Source: Gammaproteobacteria bacterium
GTDB taxonomy: Bacteria > Pseudomonadota > Gammaproteobacteria > GCA-2400775
Length of the DNA: 64,000 nucleotides
Assembly: GCA_013151045.1 (NCBI GenBank)
Contig: JAADIY010000017.1
Span: 10,458-74,457 of the forward strand
Direction of reading: 5' to 3'
In this document: positions 4,586 through 64,000 of the stretch, in pieces
Layout of the letters: each line of letters opens with the position of its first letter
Numbering within the stretch: position 1 is the stretch's first letter
Notes under the pieces: generated by a model
Told to the model about the DNA's origin: nothing
What the model saw: the letters and a program-made list of their open reading frames with translations, nothing else
Databases searched by the model: none
Position numbers and translations under genes: made by a program

Positions 4586-5602
4586 GTGGTTCGTATGAAA
4601 GTGCTCGTATACAGTGCTGCGCAATATACTCACGACACGTTTAAAAAAGCCAATCAAGGCCAGAAACATCAGTTCGTCTATAGTGATGCAACACTCAACG
4701 AACACACCACCTCACTAGCACAAGACTTCCAAGCTATCTGCTGTTTCGTCGATGATGAACTCAACGCCAAGGTATTAGACAAACTCGCTGAATTAGGTGT
4801 ACAGCTCATTTTACTGCGTTGCACGGGTTTTAATAATATCGATATCGCAGCTGCAAAAAAAAATTCCATCACCGTCATGCGTGTCGCTAATTATTCGCCC
4901 TATTCCGTGGCAGAATTTACGATTGCGATGATACTCACACTCAATCGTAAATTACATCGTAGCTACAACAGGGTAAGAGAAGGAAATTTTTTACTTGATG
5001 GCCTACTCGGCTTTGATCTCAACAATAAAACAGTTGGCATTGTCGGCACGGGGAGCATTGGTAGTGTTTTAGCAAAAATCTTATCGGGCTTCGGTTGTCA
5101 CTTATTGGCAAACGATGTCATCGAGAACGAATATTGTCTATCCCTTGGTGTCAATTATGTATCGCTAACAGAATTATTACAGCGCTCAAATATCGTCAGC
5201 TTACATTTACCTCTGACCCCTGGCACCTTTCATTTAATGAATAAAAAGACTTTATCACTAATGCAAGACGATGCCATACTCATTAATACGAGTCGCGGTG
5301 CTATCGTTAACACAACAGACTTGATTACCGAACTTAAGCGTGGACGCTTTAGCGGTGTCGGACTCGATGTCTATGAAGAAGAGTCGGGGCTCTATTATCA
5401 CGATCTACGCGATCAAATCATTGACGACGATATGTTCGCAAGACTAATCGGTTTTCCCAATGTATTGGTCACCGGTCATCAAGGGTTTTTTACCAACGAA
5501 GCACTGAATGATATTGCCACCATCACACTAAAAAATATCAGTGACTATGAAGCAGGGATAAGTAGTTCCAATACCATTAGTCACTGTGAAAAAAATGGCT
5601 AG
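4586..5602 (+). CDS. ldhA: D-lactate dehydrogenase-like 2-hydroxyacid dehydrogenase
   Basis: LRCTGFNNID, YSPYSVAEF, GIVGTGSIG, INTSRG, GLDVYEEE, NVLVTGHQGF. Start is GTG 4586 or ATG 4595. Confidence 0.85.
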   Translation: MVRMKVLVYSAAQYTHDTFKKANQGQKHQFVYSDATLNEHTTSLAQDFQAICCFVDDELNAKVLDKLAELGVQLILLRCTGFNNIDIAAAKKNSITVMRVANYSPYSVAEFTIAMILTLNRKLHRSYNRVREGNFLLDGLLGFDLNNKTVGIVGTGSIGSVLAKILSGFGCHLLANDVIENEYCLSLGVNYVSLTELLQRSNIVSLHLPLTPGTFHLMNKKTLSLMQDDAILINTSRGAIVNTTDLITELKRGRFSGVGLDVYEEESGLYYHDLRDQIIDDDMFARLIGFPNVLVTGHQGFFTNEALNDIATITLKNISDYEAGISSSNTISHCEKNG

Positions 5603-5828
5603 GCCCACTACCTTAGCCCGTCGAATAGATTTACCACTTTTGACATTCTATGCTCTTGGCACAATTTTAGGGACAGACATCTATGTCTTAGTCGAAAAAG
5701 TGGCTGAACAATCAGGTTCATTAGCGCCACTAGCATTTTTAGTGGTAGCAATTGTTACTAGTGTCACCGCACTCAGTTATTGCCAACTCGCCGCCCATTT
5801 TCCTAAAAGTGCCGGAAAAGCCTATTAA
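5595..5828 (+). pseudogene. Truncated APC-family amino acid permease (N-terminal ~78 aa only)
   Basis: YALGTILGTDIYVLV...SYCQLAAHFPKSAG matches TM1-TM2 of APC permeases (G.ilGaGIy...sYaEL...P.sag). It stops immediately after, with no continuation downstream. Confidence 0.75.
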
Positions 5829-10379: not shown

Positions 10380-12461
10380 ATGCGTCATTTTTCAATTACC
10401 GTGGCGGTTGCTGCTGTGCTGTCATCAACCACTGCATATGCTGAAAAAAAGATCGAGCTCTCACCTATCTTGGTTGAAGGCCAACAAACTGAACAAAGCT
10501 TAACGACACCATCGATAGAGCTATCTCAAGAAAAACTTAATGCAGTGCCCGGCGGTACAACCGTTATCGACCCTGAGCAATTTCGTAATGGTGCAGTTCG
10601 GGATATCGCAGACTCATTGAGATTAACGCCTGGTGTTTATGCGCAAAGTCGCTTTGGCTCAGATGAAACACGGCTTTCTATCCGTGGCTCCGGTATCTCA
10701 TTAACATTCAACACACGAGGCATTCGCTTACTTCGCGATGGCCTACCCCTTAATGAAGCTGATGGTAACTTTCGCCCACAATTACTTGAGCCACTAGTCG
10801 CCCAACAAATCGAAGTTTATCGTGGTGCTAATGCCTTAGAATTTGGCGCTGCGACCTTAGGTGGAGCAATCAATATTATCTCACCCACCGCACGCACAGT
10901 CGATGGCTTCACTCAGCGTCTTGAACTTGGCAGCGATGCTTATCGCCGTTTTCAAATTACCAACGGCAAAGTGATTGATGACAAATGGGATATCTATGGC
11001 TCACTAACCGGTATCGCACAAGATGGTTTTCGAGATAATGCTGAACAAGACACCATACGTTTTTACGGTAACGTAGGCTACCAATGGGGCTCAGGCAGTG
11101 AGACACGTATTCATTTAAACATACAAGATAACAACCTTGAATTGCCAGGCTCTTTAACATTAGAACAATTAGAAGAGGACGCCTCACAAGCAAATGCTGG
11201 ATCAGAACTTGTTAACTCGCAACGGGACTTTGATTTATATCGAATCTCAGCGCAGCATAGTGTGCCACTTGCAAACGGCGGTAAAGCAGATTTTGGTTTG
11301 AGCTTTCAACATTTAGACTTTTTTCACCCGCTACGCTTCGCTTTATTGCTATCAGACCAAAACGATACGACGTTTAGCACTCGCGTTGAGCAGCCGATTG
11401 GTGAGCGCCATAACTTAATCTACGGCGCACTAGCAAGCTGGGGCGAATCTAATGATCAGCGTTCTAGCAATTTTGGCCTTGCAGCAGGCGTACTGTTTAA
11501 CCAGGGCTCTATTACTGAACGCGGTGACTCACGATCATTTGGCTTGGAATTATTTATTCAAGATACTATCGCACTGAATAACACGGTCGATGCAATTGTC
11601 GGCACTCAAGCCATATTCGCGCGCCGCGAATCGAGCGAACTTGACCTACGTAGTAACGAATTCGGCGAGCGCGAAGAAAACTATTCTGGCTTAAGCCCAC
11701 GCATCGGCTTAATTTGGGCGCCTACCGAAAACAATCAATATTTTACAAATTTGAGTCGCAGCTTTGAGGCACCCACATCTAGCGCCTTCGCGATAGATCT
11801 CGACAATACAACCGAAGGTATTCTTGACGAACAAATTGCGATGACTTTTGAAATTGGTACACGTGGCAATATACGAAATCTTAATTACGAATTAGCCGTA
11901 TATTACTCAGATATTGAGAATGAAATTTTAACCGTAGAAAACCCACTACAAGACGGTGACACTATTACTTCAAATGCCGACGACACTGTGCATAAAGGTG
12001 TTGAATTTGGCATATCTGGTGCGCTCACTCCGTGGCTAAACGTCATTGCTGCTTACACTTACAATAACTTTAAATTTAACAATGACACCTTGTTTAGCAA
12101 TAACGAAATTCCAAGCATTCCACGTAATTTCGCTAACGCTGAATTCGAATTTCATAACCAATCTGGCTTTAGTATTGGGCCGACCATCCAATATGCCGAC
12201 AGCCACTACGTCGACTTTGCCAATACAGTACGCAACAATGCCTATGTCATCTACGGCTTAAAAGCTTCTTACCAAGCCAATAATTGGTTCAAAGTATTCT
12301 TAGAAGCACGCAACCTAGAAGATGAAACGTTTGCATCAAATACTGGCACGGCTTCCAATCTAAATGGTATATCGGATGCCACCAATGCGACTACTGGCGG
12401 CTCAGTGTTTAACCCTGGCATTGATCGCAGCTTTTTCGCCGGCGTGGAAATCAAACTCTAA
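10380..12461 (+). CDS. TonB-dependent receptor
   Basis: Signal peptide, plug motifs LSIRGSG / GIRLLRDGLPLNEADG / IEVYRGANALEFG, C-terminal FFAGVEIKL beta-signal. Confidence 0.95.
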   Translation: MRHFSITVAVAAVLSSTTAYAEKKIELSPILVEGQQTEQSLTTPSIELSQEKLNAVPGGTTVIDPEQFRNGAVRDIADSLRLTPGVYAQSRFGSDETRLSIRGSGISLTFNTRGIRLLRDGLPLNEADGNFRPQLLEPLVAQQIEVYRGANALEFGAATLGGAINIISPTARTVDGFTQRLELGSDAYRRFQITNGKVIDDKWDIYGSLTGIAQDGFRDNAEQDTIRFYGNVGYQWGSGSETRIHLNIQDNNLELPGSLTLEQLEEDASQANAGSELVNSQRDFDLYRISAQHSVPLANGGKADFGLSFQHLDFFHPLRFALLLSDQNDTTFSTRVEQPIGERHNLIYGALASWGESNDQRSSNFGLAAGVLFNQGSITERGDSRSFGLELFIQDTIALNNTVDAIVGTQAIFARRESSELDLRSNEFGEREENYSGLSPRIGLIWAPTENNQYFTNLSRSFEAPTSSAFAIDLDNTTEGILDEQIAMTFEIGTRGNIRNLNYELAVYYSDIENEILTVENPLQDGDTITSNADDTVHKGVEFGISGALTPWLNVIAAYTYNNFKFNNDTLFSNNEIPSIPRNFANAEFEFHNQSGFSIGPTIQYADSHYVDFANTVRNNAYVIYGLKASYQANNWFKVFLEARNLEDETFASNTGTASNLNGISDATNATTGGSVFNPGIDRSFFAGVEIKL

Positions 12462-19833: not shown

Positions 19834-21777
<1,944 letters not shown>

Positions 21778-21779
21778 CT

Positions 21780-21865
21780 AGCTGCTTCCCTCCGCCGGTT
21801 TTAACCGGGTCAGGTTCAATGGGTCTTTCTCAGCCTAGTTCTATCAAGGCACCCCCGCAACACTT
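21780..21865 (-). ncRNA. TPP riboswitch upstream of thiC
   Basis: Minus strand reads GGGGTGCC...GGCTGAGAAAGACCCATTGAACCTGACCCGGTTAAAACCGGCGGAGGGAAG, the canonical THI-box (CUGAGA, ACCUGA, P5 hairpin, AGGGA). Confidence 0.95.
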
Positions 21866-21977
21866 GTTACGGCATAGAATACCACCGTAGCCCGACAAAT
21901 CACACGAACCTTATGATGACACTGGCGTCCTACTGCTAGGCTAGCTAAAATAGCCATACTTTTGATCGCTATTGGTA

Positions 21978-59710: not shown

Positions 59711-60147
59711 TTAATGCGTATATTGAAGGTAACAGGTCCATCGTTAATAAGGTGGACCTGCATATCGGCAGCAAATACTCCACTATCTACTATGCTGTAG
59801 TTATGCTTTGCATAACGAATAGCATGCTCAAATAGTTTCCGACCAAGCTCAGGCTTAGCCGCAGGCGCAAAGCTAGGACGCAAGCCTTTTTGCGTATCTG
59901 CTGCCAAGGTAAATTGCGGCACAATTAACAAGCCACCGCTAACATCCCTTAAACTCTGATTCATCCGTCCTTCGCTATCACTGAAAATGCGATAAGCTAA
60001 TACACGATTTATCATCTTTTCACTAATTTCTGGTGTATCGTCGCATTCAATAGCCAGCAGCATAACGATACCTTGTTCAATTTGAGCTACGCATTCGCTA
60101 CTAATCTCAACGGACGCAGAAATAACACGCTGAATTACTGTAATCAT
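59707..60147 (-). CDS. dtd: D-aminoacyl-tRNA deacylase
   Basis: VIQRV..ASV, RIF.D.EGRMN.S, VPQFTLAADT.KG.RPSF, F.ADMQV.L.NDGPVT. Confidence 0.97.
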   Translation of the reverse strand: MITVIQRVISASVEISSECVAQIEQGIVMLLAIECDDTPEISEKMINRVLAYRIFSDSEGRMNQSLRDVSGGLLIVPQFTLAADTQKGLRPSFAPAAKPELGRKLFEHAIRYAKHNYSIVDSGVFAADMQVHLINDGPVTFNIRIN

Positions 60148-61094
60148 GCTAACTGATCAGCAAAAGCATCCGTTGCTCTAATTAAAGCATTCACGATAGA
60201 CTTTTCTGATGCTGCATGCCCTGCATCAGATATGATATTCAACTTACTTGACGACCATGCTTTATGTAACTGCCACGCACTTTCCATTGGACATACAACA
60301 TCATATCGGCCTTGCACAATGATACCCGGAATATTCTTGAGGACATGCACGTCGCGCAAAATTTGATCTTCTTCAAGAAAACTATCATTAATAAAATAAT
60401 GACACTCTATCCGAGCTAAGCTTAGCGCAATACTCGGCGTAACGAAGTGCGCACGCACATGCTCATTCGGCAACAGGTTAGATGTTCTGCCTTCCCATAA
60501 GGACCACGCTTTAGCAGTTGTTAACCGCAACCAATCGTCTTCGCTCGTCAGTCGTTGATAGTAAGCTGACAATAGATCATCTCTTTCTTGGCAAGCAATC
60601 GGGTGGATAAAATCTTGCCAATAATCAGGAAACAAGCGACTAGCGCCTTCTTGATAAAACCATTGAATTTCACGCGGCCGGCATAAAAAAATACCGCGCA
60701 AAACCAAACCCAATATGCGTTTTGGATAAGTCTCAGCATAAACTAAGGCTAATGTAGAGCCCCATGATCCACCAAAAACCAACCATTGATCGATACCCAA
60801 ATACTGGCGAATATCTTCTATGTCTTGCACTAAAGCTGGCGTCGTATTGTTATCAAGACAGGCATGGGGAGTAGATTTGCCGCAGCCACGCTGATCAAAT
60901 AAAATAATGCGGTAGCGCTGCGGATCGAAATAGCACCGATGAAATGGCTGTGTGCCGCCGCCAGGGCCACCATGCAGGAAAAGCACCGGTATTCCTTGTG
61001 GGTTACCTGACTCTTCTATATATAAATCATGAATGTCATCTGCTGCTAGCCGATGCTCAGCGTATGGGCTAATTGCGGGATACAATACTCGCAT
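60144..61094 (-). CDS. pip: Proline iminopeptidase
   Basis: LHGGPGGG, FDQRGCG.S.PHA, VFGGSWGSTLAL.Y, QGRYD.VCP, DAGH. Confidence 0.96.
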   Translation of the reverse strand: MRVLYPAISPYAEHRLAADDIHDLYIEESGNPQGIPVLFLHGGPGGGTQPFHRCYFDPQRYRIILFDQRGCGKSTPHACLDNNTTPALVQDIEDIRQYLGIDQWLVFGGSWGSTLALVYAETYPKRILGLVLRGIFLCRPREIQWFYQEGASRLFPDYWQDFIHPIACQERDDLLSAYYQRLTSEDDWLRLTTAKAWSLWEGRTSNLLPNEHVRAHFVTPSIALSLARIECHYFINDSFLEEDQILRDVHVLKNIPGIIVQGRYDVVCPMESAWQLHKAWSSSKLNIISDAGHAASEKSIVNALIRATDAFADQLA

Positions 61095-61131
61095 CAGCGT
61101 TATTCACCTTTAAACAATATAATTTTAATAA

Positions 61132-61539
61132 TCATGATCGCGTATTATAAGCCATGAGCAATGCGCACGTGGTAGCAGGATTACTCGCGATACGTTTTGC
61201 AACAAAGCCTTCTGAAAATACACCCTCACCTAAATAGTCATTCAAGCAAATTCTCTTCTCTCAATAAATACGCCTCAGCTCACCTGCAAAACAGTCAAGT
61301 TCAATATCTTCTTCACATACCGTCGTTGTAGCAGTGTGGCGCGAATCACTACAGATTAATTGATAGAGCTCGATTACTTGTTCTTTCTCACCTGACTAAC
61401 AACTGAAGCAAACTTTGCCGTTGATAGACTAATCAACCTGAAATGCGTCAAAAACGCGTATTGTTATCTTGCGCTTCTAGCAATAAATCAAGTATTCATC
61501 CAGATCACGCCGGCAAGTGTAGAGCAACTCATACAGCAT
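61132..61539 (-). pseudogene. BLUF-domain (blue-light sensor) pseudogene
   Basis: Three-frame reconstruction: MLYELLYTC / LLEAQDNN.RF*RISG*LVYQ..SLLQLL / GEKEQVIELYQLICSDSRH...IE...F. This matches the BLUF LiY.S, N..ITG.L, FlQ.LEG..V..Ly..I..D.RH pattern. Confidence 0.8.
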
Positions 61540-61654
61540 AGCGCCACCCTTTAGTTATTGTTCATTCGTGCACACGATATTACCAAGCCACTATCGTCAC
61601 TAAATGAACATGCCGTATACACGAGCCTAATGAACAAGACCCAGCTCTCATGCA

Positions 61655-62295
61655 TTCTTGCAGGTAATTCCCTACAAAAAATACTGTTATTGCCTGGCAG
61701 ATTTATTGATTTAATAAGTGGATACTGATTTCACTTGGAGTGAAGCAGGGCTCATGGATGAGCCCAATCTAATGGGGGAACGCCCATATCGTTCTCAATC
61801 TCTTTACTCCACTGACTCATGATTTGTAGGTGATTTACCTACAAAAAATACCTCTATAACCGGACATCAGCTTTTTTACCTAAGGCCGATACATCTCATC
61901 ATGGAGCATGGAATTAGGTTCATGGATGAACCGGACTTCATCAATTAAACACTTTAAGACACATTTCTTCCGCTTTCCTACAAACGTGTCAGTATTATCC
62001 TACATAAAACCCCTGGGGAATCTGTAATAGTAGACCCTGCTGATCGGAATCAGCCCAGGACGGTGGTTCAAGGATGAACCTTACTTAGATCCCACCGCCC
62101 CAGCCACTCTAGCCATCTAATTCCTCTATAAAATCTCAAAATCAAAATTGCGGACGCAAACTGTCTGGTTTGTCCTACAGCCAAGCCACTTTAATTTTGG
62201 CATGATGTAAATCCGATGGAGCGGGAGACTATTCGTTCAAGGATGAACGACTTTCTCTCCTATCCGTCGGCCAATAAATAAGCTATTTATTGATT
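61655..62295 (+). repeat. Degenerate four-unit array (~165 nt period) with A(A/U)GGAU hexaloop hairpins
   Basis: Hairpins at 61748-65, 61917-32, 62065-80 and 62233-50, each preceded 60-80 nt upstream by CCTACA (61671, 61838, 61999, 62174). Confidence 0.75.
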
Positions 62296-62297
62296 TT
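62272..62297 (+). terminator. Possible weak AT-rich terminator hairpin between the array and metH
   Basis: CAATAAATA-AGC-TATTTATTG followed by ATTTT. Confidence 0.4.
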
Positions 62298-62305
62298 CAA
62301 CTTTG

Positions 62306-64000
62306 CTAGCTTGGCTCATAACCAAGGTTTGGCGCCAGCCAACGTTCCGTCTCAGCCATACTCAAACCTTTTCGTTGTGCATAATCCGCTACCTGGTCAC
62401 GATCAATAATCCCTAAACCAAAATAACGTGCATCTGGGTGAGCAATATACCAACCGCTCACTGCTGCGGTAGGCACCATCGCAAAACTTTCGGTGATGGA
62501 AATTCCCGCGTTGTTAACTGGGTCAATCAACTCCCATAACAATGTTTTCTCAGTATGATCCGGGCACGCGGGATAACCTGGCGCAGGCCGTATACCCCTA
62601 TATTTCTCACGAATTAATTGCGTATTATCCAGTTTCTCGTCATTGTCATAGCCCCAATACTCTTTGCGTACTTGCTCATGCAAATATTCTGCATAGGCTT
62701 CAGCCAGACGGTCAGCCAACGCTTTCAGAATAATGGCCGAGTAATCATCATGCTCAGCAGCAAATCGCGCTATATGCTCGTCAATACCAATACCGCTGGT
62801 AACGGCAAAACCACCGATGTAATCATTAATACCGCTGTCTTTAGGCGCAACATAGTCGGCCAAAGCATGATTAGCTCGGCCTGGTGGTTTTTGCAGCTGC
62901 TGACGTAAATGATGCAGCGTAGTTAATACTTCGTTGCGTAATTCATCGGTATAAACCTCAATATCATCATCATTAATTGAATTGGCTGGAAACAAACCAA
63001 ACACCGCTCGCGCTGTCAGCCATTTCTCGTCAATGATCTTATCAAGCATGGCGCTCGCATCAACAAACAAAGAACGTGCGGTCTCGCCAACCACGTCATC
63101 ATCAAGTAATTTAGGGTAGCTACCTGCCAACTCCCACGCCTTAAAGAAAGGCGTCCAGTCTATGTAGTCACGCAACACCGATAAATCTTGATCTTCTATT
63201 ACCGTCAGGCCTAAGTTTTTAGGCACAACTGGCTGATACTCAGACCAGTCGACCTGTGCTTTATTCGCACGCGCATCGGCTAAACTTAGCCAATTCGTTT
63301 TTGCTTGCTTACCCTTATGACGCTGACGTACTTGCTCATACTCTTCTTCAATTTTTTGTAAATACGGCCCACGTAAATCCTCACTCACCAAATTTTGCGC
63401 AACCCCTACGGCGCGCGAAGCATCTTTGACATATAAAGTAGCTCCCTCATATCCGGGCGCTATTTTCACCGCAGTGTGTACGCGGGAGGTTGTCGCGCCA
63501 CCAATCAACAATGGAATATTAATATTTAAACGTTGCATCTCTTTAGCAACGTGCGTCATTTCCTCTAAAGACGGAGTTATCAAGCCTGACAAACCAATGA
63601 TGTCGACTTTTTCCCTCACTGCAGCTTCAAGAATCTTAGCGGCAGGTACCATAACGCCCATATCAATAATTTCAAAATTATTACACTGTAAAACAACACC
63701 AACAATATTTTTACCAATATCGTGGACATCGCCTTTCACCGTCGCCATCAATATCTTGCCGTTATTACTGGTGCCCGCTTTTCCCTTCTCGATAAACGGC
63801 AACAGGTAAGCAACCGCCTGTTTCATCACACGCGCGCTTTTGACAACCTGCGGTAAAAACATTTTGCCTTCACCAAAAAGATCGCCAACGATATTCATGC
63901 CATCCATTAACGGGCCTTCAATCACCTCAATAGGACGTTCAAACCCTTGTCTTGCTTCCTCGGTATCTTCTTCTATAAATGCATTGACGCCCTTTACAAG
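62306..64000 (-). CDS. metH: Cobalamin-dependent methionine synthase, 3' part (gene starts beyond the window)
   Basis: [46 protein letters not shown]. The frame stays open to base 64000. Confidence 0.98.

Follow-up and report, generated by a model that had tools for sequence, protein, structure and literature searches.

On the + strand at 61655-62300 of the 64,000-nucleotide (nt) stretch of DNA analysed here, which we call the window, there is probably a tandem cluster of four GacA-box-driven decoy small RNA (sRNA) genes of the Csr/Rsm type, and we give this reading a probability of roughly 0.75. In Gammaproteobacteria the principal switch of lifestyle at the post-transcriptional level is the Gac/Csr (Rsm) cascade. 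The array stretch that we examined covers 61655-62295 (641 nt) within a non-coding gap of 1.2 kb, with pip on one side and metH on the other, and its largest open reading frame (ORF) has 56 amino acids (61558-61728), in agreement with a preliminary description of this DNA which had listed no ORF of 60 amino acids or more. Judged from their sequences the four units are paralogues with one plan. Each would consist of a palindrome acting as response-regulator site, a -10-like hexamer without a -35, and a core of about 40-60 nt. The core carries three GGA motifs 5-26 nt apart. The last of them is in the loop of a hairpin with a stem of 5-6 base pairs (bp), and this hexaloop, (U)CA(N)GGAUG(A), is the preferred ligand of CsrA/RsmA/RsmE.

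The four hexaloop hairpins were located where the preliminary description had placed them, all on the + strand and spaced 169, 148 and 168 nt start to start:

61748-61765, + strand: unit 1 hairpin GGGCUC-AUGGAU-GAGCCC, 28.5 bits with the covariance model.
61917-61932, + strand: unit 2 hairpin GGUUC-AUGGAU-GAACC, 26.9 bits with the covariance model.
62065-62080, + strand: unit 3 hairpin GGUUC-AAGGAU-GAACC, 30.9 bits with the covariance model.
62233-62250, + strand: unit 4 hairpin UCGUUC-AAGGAU-GAACGA, followed by CUUUCUCUCC and terminator-like in the terminator scan.

No other ANGGAN hexaloop with a Watson-Crick stem of 5 bp or more exists in the 64 kb, both strands included, and 2000 dinucleotide shuffles of 61655-62295 gave a mean of 0.005 such hairpins and a maximum of 1. 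With a covariance model of the hairpin the four sites scored 27-31 bits and their reverse strands 9-13 bits, while the highest score in the rest of the window was 10.8 bits. The 10-mer WCANGGANGW, which is said to be the RsmE/CsrA-type motif from structural work on RsmE and hcnA, was found 6 times where 4.6 were expected (both strands, 128 kb). These loops make up four of the six, and the four share a strand and lie no more than 500 nt apart. Further, 10 of 12 positions in the loops of units 3 and 4 agree with RUACARGGAUGU, the consensus obtained by systematic evolution of ligands by exponential enrichment, in which a hairpin loop holds the GGA (PMC4347634). The + strand of the array holds 17 GGA in 641 nt, which makes about 26 per kb where the window as a whole has 5.5 (an enrichment of about 5-fold), and its seven ANGGA are the top count of any 641-nt stretch in the window. 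Only three strict AGGA/ARGGA motifs are present (CAGGAC and two AAGGAU), and the GGA density per nt is well below that of CsrB or of the sRNA at locus L080 described below.

The array was compared across four genomes, namely the window, NORP163 (L001), NORP174 (L002) and a Thiotrichales metagenome-assembled genome (MAG; L030). Among the 14 distinct units from these genomes 90.5% of stem cells pair and three of the six pairs show double changes, values which exceed those of shuffled and slid controls. The covariation of the stems around a fixed loop, as put forward earlier, is thus real but modest. All 15 units have in common the (U)CANGGAUG(A) hexaloop and two further GGA motifs. In all 15 the GGA is on the + strand and the centre of the hairpin palindrome is asymmetric, which argues for a function at the level of RNA and not of a DNA palindrome. 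As the folding energy is about equal for both strands, the strand assignment rests on this asymmetry of GGA.

The sequence CCTACA precedes every hairpin, and CCTACAAAAAATAC is identical at 61671 and 61838, both as noted before. We find that CCTACA belongs to a palindrome of 18-19 bp, TGYNNG-N6/7-CCTACA, as its invariant right arm, and that this palindrome occurs once per unit:

61659-61676, + strand: unit 1 box TGCAGG-TAATTC-CCTACA, GacA/UvrY-like.
61825-61843, + strand: unit 2 box TGTAGGT-GATTT-ACCTACA (TGTAGG-N7-CCTACA), a perfect 7-nt inverted repeat.
61977-62004, + strand: unit 3 double site, a half-site CCTACAAAC and then the full box TGTCAG-TATTAT-CCTACA (61987-62004), with 22 nt from half-site to full box, start to start.
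62162-62179, + strand: unit 4 box TGTCTG-GTTTGT-CCTACA, an exact match to TGTNNG-N6-CYTACA.

The published UvrY/GacA box is TGTAAG-N6-CTTACA (PMC3171408), from which the array boxes differ at one position per arm. The orthologues of the unit 1 box read TGTAAG-N7-CCTACA in NORP163 and TGTAGT-N6-CTTACA in NORP174 and the Thiotrichales MAG; hence C and T interchange at the arm position within one orthologous site. The unit 2 box is TGTAGG-TAAATTA-CCTACA in NORP163 and degenerate in NORP174, and the Thiotrichales MAG is without the whole unit. In that MAG the unit 3 box is a perfect palindrome, TGTAGG-AAATAT-CCTACA, and the unit 4 box is kept in all three relatives. A loose left arm combined with an invariant right arm is also seen in rsmX's upstream activating sequence (UAS) in Pseudomonas brassicacearum, TATAGCGAAACGCTTACA (PMC7911923). 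From these likenesses we infer that the palindrome would bind a response regulator of the GacA/UvrY type.

Some other sequences of this kind were observed. Beyond the array, the 9 copies of CCTACA in the 64 kb are all on the + strand, which accordingly has no TGTAGG there. A fifth, degenerate GacA-like palindrome, TGTAGAGCAACTCATACA, lies at 61518-61535, 140 nt upstream of unit 1, and NORP163 retains part of it (TGTAAAGCAATTCACACG). It is not followed by GGA motifs and the unit profile does not detect it, and it may be the remnant of a decayed unit. Weak direct repeats at 61130-61500 have a spacing of 156-162 nt, the same period as the array, and lie in a stretch of about 490 nt that only NORP163 has in common with the window (about 55% identity). 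The unit profile finds nothing in them, and a fifth unit upstream of the array would be conjectural.

To line up the units we applied MAFFT to all 15 (window 4, NORP163 4, NORP174 4, Thiotrichales MAG 3), and the CYTACAAA arm, a -10-like hexamer (GATAnn or CATGAT) and the hairpin fell into register. The putative -10-like elements are:

61721-61726, + strand: unit 1, GATACT, 44 nt after the box; orthologues GATAAT/GATAAG.
61888-61893, + strand: unit 2, GATACA, 44 nt after the box; CCGATA kept in three genomes.
62023-62031, + strand: unit 3, extended, TG-T-AATAGT, 21 nt after the full box and 43 after the half-site.
62198-62206, + strand: unit 4, extended, TG-G-CATGAT, 21 nt after the box.

The spacer from box to -10-like element is thus fixed at 44/44 nt in units 1 and 2 and at 21/21 nt in units 3 and 4. 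The unit 3 element is found in all three relatives as TGnGATAGT or TGnGATAAT, while the unit 4 element reads TGgCATGAT, cGgCATTAT or TGaGATGAT. In nearly all genomes a TG stands one base before the hexamer in these two units, and this TGn would be an extended -10 suited to activator-dependent promoters without a -35. About 7 nt beyond the hexamer each unit has its three GGA motifs within some 40 nt, the last one in the hexaloop. We therefore have adjacent paralogues each with a box of its own, as in the tandem rsmX-1/rsmX-2 arrangement, and they would presumably be transcribed independently. A sigma-54 promoter was considered for unit 1 (TGGCA-N6-TTGA, 61694) and rejected, since NORP163 does not have its GG and none of the other units carries the motif.

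The cores of the predicted RNAs appear as peaks of conservation on the + strand, from which their ends were estimated:

61733-61775, + strand: unit 1 core with UGGAG, a weaker CAGGG and the AUGGAU hexaloop.
61900-61940, + strand: unit 2 core with AUGGAG, AUGGAA, the AUGGAU hexaloop and CCGGAC.
62036-62092, + strand: unit 3 core with a GCUGAU-CGGA-AUCAGC tetraloop hairpin (62039-62054), CAGGAC, the hexaloop hairpin and a pyrimidine-rich tail.
62213-62270, + strand: unit 4 core with GAUGGAG, CGGGAG and the AAGGAU hexaloop, which tips a predicted imperfect stem of 19 pairs.

The unit 1 core is 80-85% identical to NORP163, whereafter identity drops to 40%; the unit 3 core is 90-100% identical to all three relatives and the unit 4 core 90-100% identical to NORP163. 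The consensus fold of unit 3 consists of an NGGA tetraloop hairpin and the hexaloop hairpin, so that the predicted structures place GGA in five loops, the four hexaloops and this tetraloop. For unit 4 the consensus fold has three compensatory pairs and a folding z-score of -5.7. Its outer stem shows a compensatory change at one outer pair only, and may partly be a by-product of the GGA-rich 5' part facing the U/C-rich tail. In units 1 and 4 the prediction pairs some of the 5' GGA motifs. The longer outer stems pointed out in the preliminary description are only partly conserved; that of unit 1 is lost in NORP163, and that of unit 3 competes with the GGTTC stem for two G's.

As to the 3' ends, only one type of terminator-like call is made repeatedly among the genomes, namely the hexaloop hairpin with a pyrimidine-rich tail. 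It falls on unit 4 in the window, NORP163 and the Thiotrichales MAG (where the tail is TTTTGCTTCT), and on unit 3 in NORP174 (tail ATTTTTAATT). The unit 3 and unit 4 hairpins with their tails probably double as weak intrinsic terminators, much like the terminators with GGA in the loop of the single-gene orthologues described below. Conservation falls about 10-20 nt past each hairpin, in accord with ends of this type, hence the primary products would be about 40-60 nt, with leaky termination also giving longer read-through RNAs. The possible terminator at 62272 is weaker than it was first described; it has an all-A/T stem of 9 bp, fails the terminator scan and is not conserved in the relatives:

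62272-62298, + strand: A/T-only inverted repeat CAATAAATA-AGC-TATTTATTG and then ATTTTC, found from window sequence and fold; possibly a weak end of the array.

GacA-box-driven sRNAs could work with something other than CsrA, either as Hfq/ProQ-type RNAs using the CU-rich CUUUCUCUCC as an anti-Shine-Dalgarno seed or through a different RNA-binding protein, and in unit 4 a conserved pyrimidine-rich strand does face a GGAG-rich strand. The CU-rich strand is, however, found in units 3 and 4 only, while the hexaloop and the two additional GGA shared by every unit amount to a CsrA/RsmE recognition element; we regard another partner as very unlikely.

Relatives were gathered by a pip protein search with one genome per species, which gave 80 loci; an exact-sequence lookup of the pip protein returned no record. 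With L081, from a metagenome scan, 81 loci were scanned with profiles. That scan used the unit 3 core pattern CCAGGANGGNGGTTCANGGANGANCC, and its sole match, in L081, lies inside a 592-amino-acid ORF and is a chance match, so no extra orthologues were obtained. The flanking genes are:

60144-61094, - strand: pip, an alpha/beta-hydrolase of the S33 proline-iminopeptidase type.
from 62306, - strand: 3' end of metH, B12-dependent methionine synthase.

The array begins 565 nt from pip in the window and lies downstream of metH. No + strand gene follows it, hence a + strand transcript cannot be a gene leader. The same array, in the same metH-pip position and on the same relative strand, was found in 3 of the 80 loci:

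NORP163 (L001): pip identity 87%, four units.
NORP174 (L002): pip identity 78%, four units.
Thiotrichales MAG (L030): pip identity 69%, unit 2 missing.

Relative to NORP163 the boxes and RNA cores are 85-100% identical, and the stretches from each hairpin to the next box 40-50%, with insertions and deletions of up to about 90 nt. Such conservation peaks separated by variable spacers argue for separate small genes and not for one continuous functional RNA. The single modular RNA of about 600 nt that was originally envisaged therefore fits poorly with a conserved box and -10-like element of its own for every unit, although the decoy idea as such gains from the boxes, from the syntenic conservation and from the GGA-rich sRNAs of distant relatives described below. 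In its fullest form that alternative is one CsrB-like sponge of about 570-640 nt made from the unit 1 promoter only, the internal palindromes being merely transcribed or left over from duplication. Convincing terminators between the units are indeed absent, a 568-nt stretch folds better than shuffles (z = -3.7), and L080 illustrates that a long multi-GGA RNA can occupy the locus. Yet the internal boxes and TGn -10-like elements of units 3 and 4 are better conserved than the unit 1 box, conservation is lowest in the inter-unit stretches, whose lengths differ by as much as 90 nt, and the Thiotrichales MAG has dropped unit 2 but keeps the geometry of box, spacer and -10 in units 3 and 4. We consider a single long sponge unlikely, and it may in part be compatible with tandem genes, as read-through and internal starts may coexist.

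The preliminary description had also taken CCTACA as a mark of repetitive extragenic palindromic (REP) elements and proposed a REP-like mobile repeat that spreads CsrA-like hairpins. The periodicity of the array and the GTAGG/CCTAC within its palindromes would agree with this. An nhmmer profile of the 15 units, however, matches nothing in the 64 kb but the four units and nothing in the 81 loci but the syntenic arrays, and the covariance model finds no further copy of the hairpin in the window, where nothing else rises above 13 bits. Thus the many dispersed copies expected of REP elements or bacterial interspersed mosaic elements were not seen in these 64 kb of genome and 81 loci. Further, the metH-pip position is stable in four genomes whose pip proteins are only 69-87% identical, and CCTACA has a TGYNNG arm as its partner, the two being spaced as in a response-regulator site, and this box also precedes single sRNAs in other species. 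CCTACA is better read as the right arm of an activator palindrome, and a mobile repeat of any kind seems extremely improbable.

Those single sRNAs came to light among the 77 loci without the array. A perfect TGTAGG-N6-CCTACA, 37-95 nt upstream of pip, is present in only three of them, L053, L008 and L080, and in exactly these a GGA-rich stretch follows on the strand divergent from pip and ends with a GC-rich stem, a GGA loop and a U run:

L053, 5906-5660, - strand: predicted sRNA of Thioalkalivibrio denitrificans with box and GGA-loop terminator, at most 12 GGA per 200 nt.
L008, 5910-5680, - strand: predicted sRNA of a Sedimenticolaceae MAG with box and GGA-loop terminator, at most 8 GGA per 200 nt.
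L080, 5964-5660, - strand: predicted sRNA of a MAG with box and GGA-loop terminator, at most 17 GGA per 200 nt.

The terminator of L080 is GCCCCGAU-AAGGAU-UAUCGGGGC-UUUUU. L008 is the weakest by density; its opposite strand reaches 9 GGA per 200 nt, and therefore this assignment rests on box and terminator more than on the GGA count. L008 also has a double box like that of unit 3, CCTACAAAC-ATTTCAG-N6-CCTACA. Kulkarni et al. (2006; PMC1488887) gave five criteria for CsrA-regulating sRNAs, among them an intergenic site, GGA in loops, an upstream UvrY/GacA-type site of 18 bp and a terminator, and by all five the L053, L008 and L080 RNAs are, as far as their predicted features go, textbook Csr/Rsm decoys. 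None of them matches Rfam at the gathering score, the best sub-threshold match being RsmY on L080 (12.4 bits, E about 1), and they are apparently unannotated.

These RNAs resemble the array in position, in their orientation divergent from pip, in the TGTAGG-N6-CCTACA box and in their A(N)GGAU loops, and that of L008 shares the CCTACAAA extension as well; they are, unlike the array, single genes ending in a GC-rich terminator. They give no match with the nhmmer profile of the units, hence homology with the array rests on box, position and orientation only. The shared box and site suggest that the box marks Csr-type sRNA genes in this part of Gammaproteobacteria and that the spot beside pip is an old home of such a gene. 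In the lineage of the window three or four mini-genes seem to have taken the place of one longer gene.

The distant loci also bear on a reading in which the array is a set of DNA-only operators for pip or metH, with TGYNNG-N6-CCTACA and GTTCA-N4-TGAAC both being protein sites. Both motifs are inverted repeats, and the box of L008, L053 and L080 is no further than about 110 nt from where pip starts. Against this, the hairpin palindrome has its asymmetric centre with GGA on one strand throughout, its stems change by compensatory substitution and not by keeping the half-site sequence, the array lies well away from the start of pip and beyond the end of metH, and the counterparts in these relatives end in classic intrinsic terminators, i.e. 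they are transcribed units. We find the operator reading highly improbable.

Two further observations were made in these loci. In L025 (Sedimenticola MAG), at 10480-10600 (+), a GUGGCAC-AAGGAU-GUGCCAC hairpin is followed by a terminator-like stem of 13 bp with an AUGGAG loop; it lies about 3.5 kb downstream of pip with no clear box seen upstream, and the region may be another Rsm-type sRNA. In L053, right after the sRNA terminator, the heptamer CAGCACT is repeated in tandem in about 5-6 copies (5600-5660, - strand).

Several results weigh against a cluster of four decoy genes in the window. With regard to the terminator listed by Kulkarni et al., the array has no GC-rich intrinsic terminator and only the weak hairpin-tail calls, and units 1 and 2 lack a U-rich tail. 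A strict sigma-70 scan gave no promoter within the array, and the arms of the unit 2 box stand one base further apart than is canonical. Strict ARGGA is found in two loops only, the other two having AUGGA, and the predicted fold of unit 4 hides both of its 5' GGA motifs in base pairs. With a comparative depth of four genomes, the statistics on covariation are weak. None of the Csr/Rsm families in Rfam that we compared (CsrB RF00018, CsrC RF00084, RsmY RF00195, RsmZ/PrrB RF00166 and RsmX RF02144) matched in the window at the gathering score, and at E<=10 the interval 61050-62350 gave no Csr/Rsm model, only noise from small nucleolar and long non-coding RNA models. Finally, tblastn with E. coli CsrA and UvrY found neither gene in the window or in the fetched flanks, and its matches in other loci were unrelated response-regulator receiver domains only; the partners CsrA and GacA are assumed because they are generally present in Gammaproteobacteria.

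If the four units are decoy genes as we propose, the four promoters would fire when a Gac-type two-component system is active, and the RNAs, with about 12 good sites in all, would sequester CsrA/RsmA dimers and so relieve the repression of target mRNAs. Termination between the units would probably be leaky, and longer read-through RNAs with 6-12 sites would be likely. Further, we speculate, with the odds clearly against us, that the locus works as a multi-promoter, leaky-terminator 'sponge cassette', in which minimal three-site modules of 40-60 nt are made both singly and as nested RNAs of 3, 6, 9 and 12 sites, so that valency is set by the choice of promoter and the efficiency of termination and not by copy number alone. 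The locus would then have switched in evolution between long CsrB-like (L080), RsmY-like (L053, L008) and mini-RNA array forms (window, NORP163, NORP174, Thiotrichales MAG).

To our knowledge, nearly all Csr/Rsm decoy RNAs described come from model genera in culture. If our reading is true, the array would give a first handle on the Gac/Csr circuit in an uncultured marine lineage related to NORP163 and NORP174, and a variant activator box, TGTAGG-N6-CCTACA, would mark Csr-type sRNA genes beside pip in seven genomes from Thioalkalivibrio to Sedimenticolaceae. It would also add sRNA families that Rfam does not yet hold, and offer at a single locus a natural series from one long RNA to four mini-RNAs, in which the number and spacing of sites could be related to CsrA titration. 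The array reading overturns no current view; its use lies in annotation and in the study of how decoy architecture evolves.

In a different part of the window a thiamine pyrophosphate riboswitch was detected at 21769-21866 (- strand; 64.4 bits, at the Rfam gathering score). It lies just upstream of a 625-amino-acid ORF at 19834-21711 (- strand), which is putatively thiC.

Set beside the known decoys, the array agrees with the published descriptors in its intergenic site, its GGA in predicted loops and its upstream UvrY/GacA-type 18-bp site (PMC1488887). CsrB and CsrC likewise have an upstream 18-bp UvrY box, an intergenic location and many CsrA sites (predicted in the array), and can occur as side-by-side siblings; the genes for CsrB1/CsrB2 of Vibrio and Shewanella are adjacent in some Shewanella (PMC1488887, PMC3171408). 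A CsrB-type RNA is, however, a single transcript of 350-420 nt with 18-22 closely packed ARGGA loops and a strong terminator, whereas the array has four groups of three sites with about 100 nt of promoter and spacer DNA between them.

RsmY and RsmZ have GGA in hairpin loops including the last hairpin, as in the array, and their copy number is also amplified for decoy capacity, Azotobacter vinelandii having eight RsmZ1-7/RsmY RNAs (PMC4824345). Their transcription is GacA-dependent, as that of the array would be, but the array units are much shorter, contiguous and unmatched by the Rfam models.

RsmX of Pseudomonas likewise consists of short RNAs with several GGA, has a palindromic UAS for each copy with the right arm better kept than the left, is GacA-dependent, as the array genes would be, and has been duplicated in tandem. 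The tandem pair rsmX-1/rsmX-2 is found in P. brassicacearum, P. fluorescens F113 and P. stutzeri, whereas P. syringae has as many as five copies (PMC7911923). RsmX is about 110 nt long with a CTTACA arm, whereas the array has cores of about 40-60 nt with three GGA each, four copies in a row and a CCTACA arm; the two have no similarity in sequence or by covariance model, and the array is without the GC-rich terminator. We therefore suggest that the array represents a new sequence family of a known type of regulatory RNA, for which tandem rsmX and multi-copy RsmZ are the precedents.

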